IMG/VR virus record: IMGVR_UViG_2713896777_000003
Direction: 5' to 3' (one strand)
Origin: a virus
Lineage: Duplodnaviria; Heunggongvirae; Uroviricota; Caudoviricetes
DNA: 7,603 nt
A program made the position numbers. This document shows, in pieces, positions 1-3,000 of the stretch; position 1 is the stretch's first letter, and every line of letters starts with the position of its first letter.

Positions 1-3000
1 CGCGTTGGCGAATAATCATTTCTGCCGGAAGAATGCCGGGATTGTATGCAAGTCCTCTCATGGTAAATTCCTCAGTCATTACTGATAGCGCCATAGCGTG
101 AGCGGTAATTACGCAGGCGCGGGTCAATTTCAGGGAAGTGGGTATATGTGGCTTTGCGGAATGGTCGGATTGATGTCTGGTAAATTCGCTCGCGTTCTTC
201 TTTCTCTGCAAGCCATATACAATGGCGAAATTCCTTTTCCTCTTTCGTTTCCTGCGGTAGCGACATTATCCGATCGTAGTTTTTTCTGAATTTATCCAGC
301 ACCTCCGATACGGAATTGCCGGAACAGCGGCGTGGGTCATCCGCACCATACAGAGGCGCTGGCATAATTAAATCCTTATTTTTCTAAATCAGAATGGGAT
401 GGAATCGTCGTATACAGGAGTGTTCTGCTGGTTACTACTTTGCTGCTGCGGGCCATTTCCTGAAGCTGCAAATCCAATCTTTGCATTCAGTAATTCAAGA
501 GTGATTGATTGACCATTTTGCCCCTGATAAACATCAACCCTGATGTTTTCTCCGGTAATTTCCACAATGCCACCTTCAACAAGAACACTACGGTAGTAAT
601 CCGCTTGCGCTCCCGGCTTGGCAAATACAACGGCGCTGTAGTTTGTCCATTCTTTCTTTTTTGTCTGGCGATCGTAATACTGAACGCCAGCACGGATGTT
701 GAATCCGATATTTTCCCCGGTCTGAAACTCTCTTGCGGGCTTGTTTAGTCTTACAGTAATCGAATGTGCCATTAAGCAGCAGCTCCTTCTAATTCGTCTC
801 GTCTGATGTTGTAAACGTCCTGCGCTTTGTGCTGCTCCGGTGTGCCTTCGAGCATCTTCCACGCTTTGGCGAACGCCTGTTTAAGCTCTTCTACGGTGTT
901 TTTCTGCATTGCTGCGTCAGTGAATGCTTTTAGAACCTGTTCAGGTGTAGGTGATGGTTTTGATTGCTTTGCTGCTGCGTTCTGCTGATGTTTATGCTCG
1001 TCGGTATCTGCATCTTTCGCATCATCAATGCCGAATAAACCATTGAGGCAATACTTGCGTGCATAAGAGCTTGTAGCTCCCGTAACTTGTGCAGAATCCA
1101 TTCCTTTCTTGCTTTCTTCCTCTCGTGCAAGAGCGGTTGCCGTATGACTGTTTTCGCCATCGGTAATAGTTGCCGTGGCTTTCACATAATACCGATCACC
1201 AATCAACACAACTTCATCGCTGATTGATAAAAACAGGCCATTCAGTAACGGCTTAACGCCTTCAAGAATGTCTTCGCAGCTTCTGTATTTATATTTACCG
1301 AATGAGTTGTACTGATTCTTTGGCGCGTTCAAGTTCTCCTGAATAGCTGCCAGTCTTGCGTAAAAGTCTTTGCTCATATGTTTGTTCTCAGAATGGGCAT
1401 GGCCCAAGGAAATAACGCTGATTTAATACTTCAGTCTTTGCCGCATTTAAAAATACGCGAACACCTTCACGATCTCCCTTCTGGCGATACATTAACGCCT
1501 GCTGCGTGTACATGCGTCTCTGTAACTTGCTCTCCTTCACTGTGGTTGCAAGTGACATGAATATCTCCTTCGTTACCGATTAATTCTTTCATCTGACGAA
1601 TGAATTCTTCGTCTGACCAGTTATCTGTAAAACTCATTTCCTGCGATAACACGGAAGGTTGATAGCTGATTTCATCGCTTTATTTGCTTCAAGCCACATT
1701 TTTGAATCACCAATAAATCGGGCTATTACTGCCTTGTTCTGTGCAGCACGAAGCATCTGGTGATTGATGGCTATTTCATTGCGCATAATAAGACCTCAAC
1801 TCTTTTCCATCCGTCACGTAATTTACGGGTGATTCGTTCAAGTAAAGATTCATTTAATTGGAAGGCACCCATGCGAGCGCCTCCCGCGATTGCGTAAATC
1901 ATGGGTGGTTCCTTATGTTGGTTTTATTAGTAGGTTATTTTTGTTGCGAATAATTCGCCTTTTACGATGGCTGTTATGATATTTTTAGCAACATCTTCTG
2001 ATGCGCCAACCTTGATAAGGTCAGCAAGTATTTTGTTATTTACTTCTTTCCGGTGAGCTTTATCCTTTGCTCTACGCTCTTCTTCGTCCTTGATTCTTTT
2101 TTCTTCTGCTATTCTGGCTTGCTCTTTTGCTTCAGCCTCGCGCAGGATTCGTTCTGCCTCCTCCTGTGCTTTACGGCGTTCTGCTTCAATTGCCGCATGC
2201 TTTTCTCTTTCAGCTCGTTCTGCTGCCTCTTTTGCTTCGCGCTGTGCTCGTTGCTCGGCTTCAATGCGTTCACGCTCTGCACGTTCCTCTGCGGCCTTAG
2301 CTTCTGCTTCTCGCCTTGCTGCTGCTTCAATTTCGGCTTTTGCCTTTGCTTCGGCTTCAGCTCTGGCTTTCTCTTCAGCTTCTCTTTTTAAGCGTTCTTC
2401 ATGCTCTCGCTTTTCCTGCTCCGCTTTGAGTCTTGCCTCTTCTCTTTGGCGGTCAAATTCGCGATCCATCAAAATCGCTATTTCATGGTCAGACTCAATT
2501 TGCTTTGCGAGAGCTTCAGCTGCTGCCTTAGCTTCTTCTTCGGCTTTAATCCGCGCCTGTTCTTCCTCATAATCAGTAAGAGGCTGGCGCGCCTTGGCTT
2601 TCAGTTCATCAAGGCGATCGCGCACTGTCTTGCGGTTAGCATCAATTAGCTTTGGAATTTCCTTCAGTTCAGCAACAAGGTCTTTGCCAAGACCATCGAG
2701 ATATGTTTTCGTCTGCGCAACTTTATACGCCAGATAAGCGATCTCCTTTCTGCCCTTTGCCGTTGTGATATCAGGCACAAAGGACATAACTTCACGTTCA
2801 ACCTTTTGAAGAATTTCTTCAATCTGGTCGGCAGACTAAATTACAGTCATTGCATTTGCTTTTTCAATAACAACTAAATCTGTTACTTCACTCATATATC
2901 CTCCGTCAAAAAAATTGCCCTCACACTGGAGGGCAAAGAAGATTTCCAATAATCAGAACAAGTCGGCTCCTGTTTAGTTACGAGCGACATTGCTCCGTGT

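Follow-up and report, generated by a model that had tools for sequence, protein, structure and literature searches.

A probable natural amber allele of an Sf6 gene 33-type early gene in a decaying lambdoid prophage of Escherichia coli

The 7,603-nt stretch of caudoviral DNA analysed here (hereafter, the window) comes from the IMG/VR record IMGVR_UViG_2713896777_000003, and its minus strand carries a gene of the Sf6 gene 33 type whose reading frame is interrupted by an amber codon at codon 20. Very probably, this is a natural and recent loss-of-function allele of an early pL-operon gene, residing in a lambdoid prophage that is itself decaying. Public annotation already flags the internal stop. 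In RefSeq, the Prokaryotic Genome Annotation Pipeline (PGAP) gives a pseudogene over precisely the 969 nt of the gene, with the label "cell envelope biogenesis protein TolA; internal stop", under ECO26_RS04435 in Escherichia coli O26:H11 11368 and QMG77_RS04310 in strain H19. The coordinates of the latter coincide with window 1927..2895, and both entries are identical to the window interval in sequence and boundaries.

The layout was established by translating the window from 2895 to 1924 on the minus strand, together with a list of open reading frames (ORFs) and direct reading of the sequence. In minus-strand order there are a GGAGG (2904..2900), an ATG (2895..2893), a TAG (2838..2836), a second ATG (2787..2785), and a stop codon (1929..1927), and on translation the codons sum to 322 (19, the TAG itself, 16, and 286). 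The letters around the start read ...TTTTTTTGACGGAGGATAT ATG AGT GAA ... ACT GTA ATT TAG TCT GCC ... GAA GTT ATG TCC ..., and the translation runs MSEVTDLVVIEKANAMTVI, a stop, and SADQIEEILQKVEREVMSFVPD..., with a C-terminal end of ...ATKITY followed by two stops. The original prediction placed an ATG with a strong ribosome-binding site (RBS) at 2895, in frame with a 286-aa ORF and separated from it by one TAG at 2836-2838, and this proved exact to the base. The contrast that it drew between the two RBSs was borne out as well: the GGAGG before ATG2895 pairs with the anti-Shine-Dalgarno (anti-SD) sequence at -9.5 kcal/mol, joint strongest with cro among the 12 window starts scored, as against only -3.6 kcal/mol for the 20 nt preceding ATG2787. 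The features of the locus are as follows.

1927..2895, minus strand: annotated pseudogene of 969 nt (322 codons and the stop), orthologous to Sf6 gene 33 and interrupted by amber at codon 20 (nucleotide identity; PGAP).
2915..2936, minus strand: terminator-like hairpin TTGCCCTC...GAGGGCAA followed by T7, directly upstream of the pseudogene (terminator scan).
2900..2904, minus strand: Shine-Dalgarno (SD) sequence GGAGG, 4 nt before ATG2895 (sequence; anti-SD duplex energy).
2839..2895, minus strand: native start and 18 further codons, giving the 19-residue peptide MSEVTDLVVIEKANAMTVI (translation).
2841, minus strand: T-to-A change, TTT to ATT, Phe19Ile, in the codon adjoining the stop (alignment with intact orthologues).
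2836..2838, minus strand: amber TAG, the result of a C-to-T transition at 2838 in the Gln20 codon CAG, with T as the next base (TAG-T) (orthologue alignment).
2788..2835, minus strand: 16 codons, SADQIEEILQKVEREV, between the TAG and Met37 (translation; helix 22-38 of a homologue model).
1927..2787, minus strand: residual 286-codon ORF from Met37, with a weak SD (ORF list).

The 19-residue peptide is the N-terminus of the intact orthologues save for F19I, and the 16 codons that follow the TAG belong, in those orthologues, to a conserved N-terminal helical region. The 286-codon ORF holds the rest of the N-terminal bundle, a coiled coil rich in Ala, Glu, Lys, and Arg, and a small C-terminal domain, and its product is a possible low-level reinitiation product.

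Comparison with intact relatives carries the argument. The window gene is 98.2% identical in nucleotide sequence to Sf6 gene 33 (NP_958209), mEp043_044, and HK544_037, all of which are intact 969-nt coding sequences, and a codon-by-codon alignment with the intact orthologues contains no indels. Where the relatives read GTA TTT CAG TCT, the window reads GTA ATT TAG TCT, and the stop is thus a nonsense mutation of CAG (Gln20) to TAG, by a C-to-T change at 2838. In Sf6, mEp043, and HK544 the gene occupies a slot of the pL operon between a lambda tL2A-like terminator and cIII-kil. The synteny of the window is the same, with the pseudogene downstream of a tL2A-like terminator and directly upstream of cIII-kil, and the Sf6 record carries the annotation "terminator; homology to phage lambda; tL2A" at the position aligned with the hairpin at 2915..2936. 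Over the gene interval, identity is 100% to many genomes of enterohemorrhagic E. coli (EHEC) and ~98% to phages Sf6, mEp043, mEp234, HK544, and others. The Sf6 gene 33 protein matches phrog_1376 over residues 1-322 (E=2e-110). With homology and synteny present and the uninterrupted frame of ~322 codons broken by the TAG, the window gene is, on these alignments, a pseudogene member of the Sf6 gp33/PHROG 1376 family. It shares with Sf6 gene 33 its length, its pL-operon slot, and the nucleotide identity given above (over 1,061 nt), and it differs from that gene in the TAG and in the private replacements F19I, S54Y, A203E, and V315L.

Direct support for CAG as the ancestral state also comes from a survey of further copies. 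In a first IMG/VR sample, comprising the best 80 relatives (71 distinct alleles) and biased towards intact copies, all 80 had CAG at codon 20 and no interruption in the 322 codons. IMG/VR was resampled with patterns independent of gene integrity. One was an invariant 32-mer of the 5′ end and four were haplotype patterns from the middle of the gene, each of these four giving a complete listing, and the 146 full-length copies divided as follows.

Intact: 127 copies, one with an in-frame 66-nt deletion.
TAG at codon 20: 10 copies.
Frameshift only: 6 copies (at nt 299; at nt 336 in three copies; at nt 794; at nt 897).
Mosaic replacement of part of the gene: 3 copies.

CAG thus stands at codon 20 in 127 of the 146. 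Since the codons flanking the TAG are identical or near-identical to those of a continuous 322-codon gene in Sf6, mEp043, HK544, and these 127 copies, the arrangement in the window is not a product of chance. Homologues at 48–60% identity from Klebsiella, Citrobacter, Enterobacter, Raoultella, Pseudomonas, and Aeromonas all start at the equivalent of Met1 and include residues 1–36, and no homologue natively starts at the equivalent of 2787. The proposal that a protein of originally ~322 aa had suffered a nonsense mutation, for which an alignment of homologues across the TAG had been suggested as the check, is upheld by the sense codon CAG found at that position and by frames that continue through it. 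A different arrangement, in which two native genes (a conserved 19-codon small ORF and then a 286-aa gene) lie side by side, might be read from the fact that some gene callers report the 286-aa ORF or a Met37-initiated fragment (P0018). This arrangement has next to no probability, as the split occurs only in carriers of the same mutation, whereas both the distant homologues and the 127 copies are continuous.

The natural spread of the mutation is directly supported by complete genomes. Among 5,426 complete E. coli genomes, the 5′ end of the gene was present in 465 records, and 111 of these carried the exact 81-mer with ATT-TAG at codons 19–20. The carriers are natural isolates, of human, bovine, and food origin and from several countries, and they include O26:H11, O111:H11, and O103 strains. 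A difference of one base may, in principle, arise from faulty sequencing or assembly, and amber alleles are classical in laboratory lambdoid phages (lambda Sam7/Nam7); a sequencing error and a laboratory amber allele had also been suggested for the stop. Either origin is extremely improbable when the identical allele recurs across independent projects, hosts, and countries, in several IMG/VR contigs as well as 111 complete genome records, and when a second private substitution (F19I) accompanies the TAG in the adjacent codon; both suggestions can be dropped. The window allele does resemble the classical lambdoid ambers, and the lacI and T4 rIIB restarts, in being a CAG-to-TAG type of nonsense mutation near the 5′ end with an in-frame AUG shortly downstream. 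Unlike them, it is natural and has no suppressor host, and reinitiation is hypothetical.

The TAG also occurs beside the ancestral neighbouring codon. Human isolates account for the 16 E. coli genomes with TTT-TAG, where the gene lies in another, Sf6-like prophage, which in the three genomes examined is not a Shiga toxin (Stx) prophage. The single-step intermediate ATT-CAG was absent from all 5,426 complete genomes. An order in which the nonsense mutation came first and Phe19Ile later fits the presence of the one and the absence of the other. The TTT-TAG and ATT-TAG lineages have no other private substitutions in common, and one origin of the TAG and two are both compatible with the alignment. 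A Dcm deamination hotspot was considered as the source of the transition and rejected, the wild-type context TTTCAGTCT not being CCWGG.

With one exception, the ATT-TAG copies examined are identical to the window over 1,034 nt; the exception has a 1-nt deletion in an A6 run, which could be an assembly artefact. This identity implies that the ATT-TAG allele is young and has spread clonally or by recombination. Four phages encoding Stx1a (LC744181-4) carry a gene allele 100% identical to that of the window and have only 65% of the window in common with it. A reading of the window as part of an Stx1a prophage does not hold for strain H19, whose matching prophage (876–912 kb) adjoins ybhC, in the lambda attachment-site region, and is without stx. 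ATT-TAG at codons 19–20 is a lineage marker common to the ybhC-site prophage of O26, O111, and O103 EHEC and to some Stx1a phages, a distribution consistent with exchange between co-resident lambdoid prophages.

It is conceivable that the stop is read through, by amber suppression or programmed recoding, with low, regulated synthesis of the full-length protein continuing. Suppression of the supE type would place Gln, exactly the ancestral residue, at the codon, and the frame survives in full together with its strong RBS. Against this, no tRNA gene was found in a scan of the window and no RNA gene is annotated in the 36-kb H19 prophage region, and an Rfam scan of the window returned no element or recoding signal. 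Moreover, the stop is not conserved, being confined to two lineages with near-identical alleles; the strains that carry it were isolated from the wild and are not known to have suppressors; and TAG followed by T is a context that terminates efficiently, UAG then U being an efficient termination signal in E. coli through the fourth-base effect. Suppression-dependent expression, one of the explanations first put forward for the stop, is accordingly very unlikely.

Decay is seen in the gene and in the prophage around it, and the idea of a decaying prophage gene, likewise part of the original prediction, is the one that the PGAP pseudogene call, the other broken prophage genes, and a deletion in the second TAG lineage favour. 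Secondary decay is seen directly in the sister lineage: the three TTT-TAG copies examined (PA45B, SCU-123, and AH21H025) have a 14-nt frameshifting deletion in the coiled-coil region, at the equivalent of window 2427..2414, and PGAP labels the copy of this lineage "frameshifted; internal stop". In the H19 prophage, the Lar, Ea22, and antiterminator genes are partial, the DUF6645 gene is frameshifted, and an IS66-family insertion interrupts the head protease gene. In the prophage copy of O26 11368, IS600 lies between kil and erf, and the sieB, cII, and O genes are truncated.

The same gene has been disrupted elsewhere, by lesions that differ from that of the window and in hosts of other pathotypes, namely extraintestinal pathogenic E. 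coli (ExPEC), commensal strains, and avian pathogenic E. coli (APEC). In CUS-3 (ECRS218_0048/0049; positions 267-1236 of locus L090), the gene occupies the same slot and has gained a T at nt 336, which splits it into ORFs of 116 and 214 aa. In phiv205-1 and eight APEC genomes, an independent ochre mutation (CAA to TAA) affects Q30, upstream of Met37, and the PA45B-type prophage, again in the same slot, combines the TAG at Q20 with the 14-nt deletion. Further independent single-base deletions occur at nt 299, 794, and 897. These independent disruptions suggest that the gene is dispensable for the prophage. The two CUS-3 ORFs match PHROGs 17211 and 21365, whose profile lengths are 116 and 214 and which cover residues 1–115 and 111–322 of the Sf6 protein; it may be that both families were seeded by pseudogene fragments.

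The leading alternative is that the early stop is tolerated, or even selected, with translation restarting at AUG37 to give a 286-aa truncated protein of retained or changed function. AUG37 is the first in-frame canonical start past the TAG and lies 48 nt downstream of it, within the range described for post-termination reinitiation in E. coli; lacI and T4 rIIB offer classical cases of restarts no more than a few tens of nucleotides from a nonsense codon. Three points may be set against simple loss of function. First, the 286-codon frame is open in all ATT-TAG copies but one. Second, the known nonsense alleles, Q20 TAG in EHEC, Q20 TAG in ExPEC and commensal strains, and Q30 TAA in APEC, all lie upstream of Met37. 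Third, the signal of relaxed constraint, which leans towards loss of function, is suggestive only: the codon changes found in the window alone comprise four non-synonymous (F19I, S54Y, A203E, and V315L) and one synonymous, a ratio of 4:1 compared with 59:94 among the 71 intact alleles, which is not significant (Fisher p=0.08), and the near-identity of the ATT-TAG copies leaves such a comparison little power. Intact alleles differ from one another chiefly by synonymous changes: for pairs among Sf6, mEp043, and HK544, the synonymous to non-synonymous counts are 12:1, 19:3, and 11:4.

At face value, the clustering of nonsense codons leans towards such a restart, given that only 13 of the 143 possible nonsense substitutions (9%) fall in codons 1–36 (p=0.0008 if three events are independent, 0.008 if only two are) and that none of the 146 IMG/VR copies has a nonsense codon downstream of Met37. 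However, the test is post hoc and concerns two or three events, the two TAGs may be a single event, and exclusion of the index event brings the values to 0.09-0.008. Clustering is not significant when all lesion types are taken together, and an excess of early nulls is likewise to be expected if longer truncated coiled-coil fragments are harmful. Frameshifts downstream of Met37 are common in other lineages, and in the second TAG lineage the 14-nt deletion has destroyed the downstream frame. Met37 itself is Met solely in the E. coli group, with R, D, G, T, or A elsewhere, and ATG2787 has the weak SD noted above. The segment that a restart would omit is, by direct comparison, conserved: residues 1–36 are retained across genera, F19 is at least 90% conserved as a nearly invariant aromatic position, and the first two helices of its N-terminal bundle, in the model of a homologue, are made up of residues 12–38.

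On balance, a functional restart product is unlikely. A related proposal, that early nonsense codons (20 in EHEC, 20 in ExPEC and commensal strains, and 30 in APEC) have been recurrently selected, either for an active Met37 restart product or because lysogens tolerate no nulls but clean, early ones, is a shade less likely still. As for the open frame, it would persist because the mutation is recent, and it gives no information on selection.

In searches bearing on function, an intact orthologue had no matches in Pfam (E<=0.1), NCBIfam (E<=0.01), or PADLOC, and its matches in PHROGs were limited to families annotated as of unknown function. A sequence search of the PDB gave zuotin as the only match, a compositional one. 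The AlphaFold2 model of a compact 206-aa homologue is all-helical, with a mean pLDDT (predicted local distance difference test) of 83.7 and helices at 12–20, 22–38, and 46–76, a long one at 81–179, and a small C-terminal one. It matched no PDB fold better than E=0.27, and its viral matches were homologues only. Searches of the literature on Sf6 gp33, and for this pseudogene in papers on Stx1a and O26, found nothing on the gene. Identity with TolA was considered and rejected, there being no Pfam or NCBIfam model on the intact orthologue and no TolA among the PDB fold matches listed (all E>=0.27); the PGAP name seems to reflect only the Ala/Glu/Lys/Arg-rich composition of the coiled coil. The length of this central coiled coil varies greatly among proteins that are otherwise related, as illustrated by the in-frame 66-nt deletion and by complete homologues of 197–206 aa (P0008 and P0033 among the loci noted) beside the 322-aa form, and such variation suggests a spacer between conserved N- and C-terminal domains.

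The slot itself is familiar from other lambdoid phages. P22 gene 17 and lambda ea10 occupy the same variable accessory position, between N/ral/sieB and cIII; the resemblance is one of position. In the published H-19B sequence (AF034975, 1257-1568), a P22 gp17-like gene stands where the window (1927-3690) has the gp33-like pseudogene and sieB. The cI and cro genes of H-19B are the same size as those of the window, and the slot upstream of cIII is a mosaic accessory slot.

Two neighbouring features of the window may be added. A run of 50 Ns at 6543-6592 lies inside the cII-like gene, where H19 has 17 bases, and it explains the 33-nt difference in length between the window and the H19 locus. The minus-strand ORF at 3714-3986, a PGAP "hypothetical protein", occupies the place expected for N and has the arginine-rich stretch AASRRRARRANLQ; as such stretches are typical of N-type antiterminators, it is a putative member of that group.

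Under the favoured explanation of a recent, natural loss-of-function allele, a C-to-T transition turned the Gln20 codon CAG into the amber TAG. Ribosomes loading at GGAGG/ATG2895 would then stop after 19 residues, the strong RBS would yield the 19-mer only, and the 286-codon downstream frame would be a relic. The protein is presumably non-functional, and any reinitiation at AUG37 is probably weak. The allele has spread, clonally and by prophage recombination, among EHEC of serogroups O26, O111, and O103 and into some Stx1a phages. Downstream, the expression of cIII and kil is expected to be largely spared. Transcription antiterminated by N in lambda resists Rho-dependent polarity, and the ~950 nt of untranslated mRNA before cIII and kil should therefore have little polar effect on them. 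Translation of cIII might be slightly altered, with ribosomes no longer terminating 25 nt before the cIII start.

For the annotation of these EHEC prophages, the result confirms that the 286-aa ORF ought not to be called as a real "TolA" or coiled-coil protein, and beyond such annotation hygiene the finding has little wider significance.

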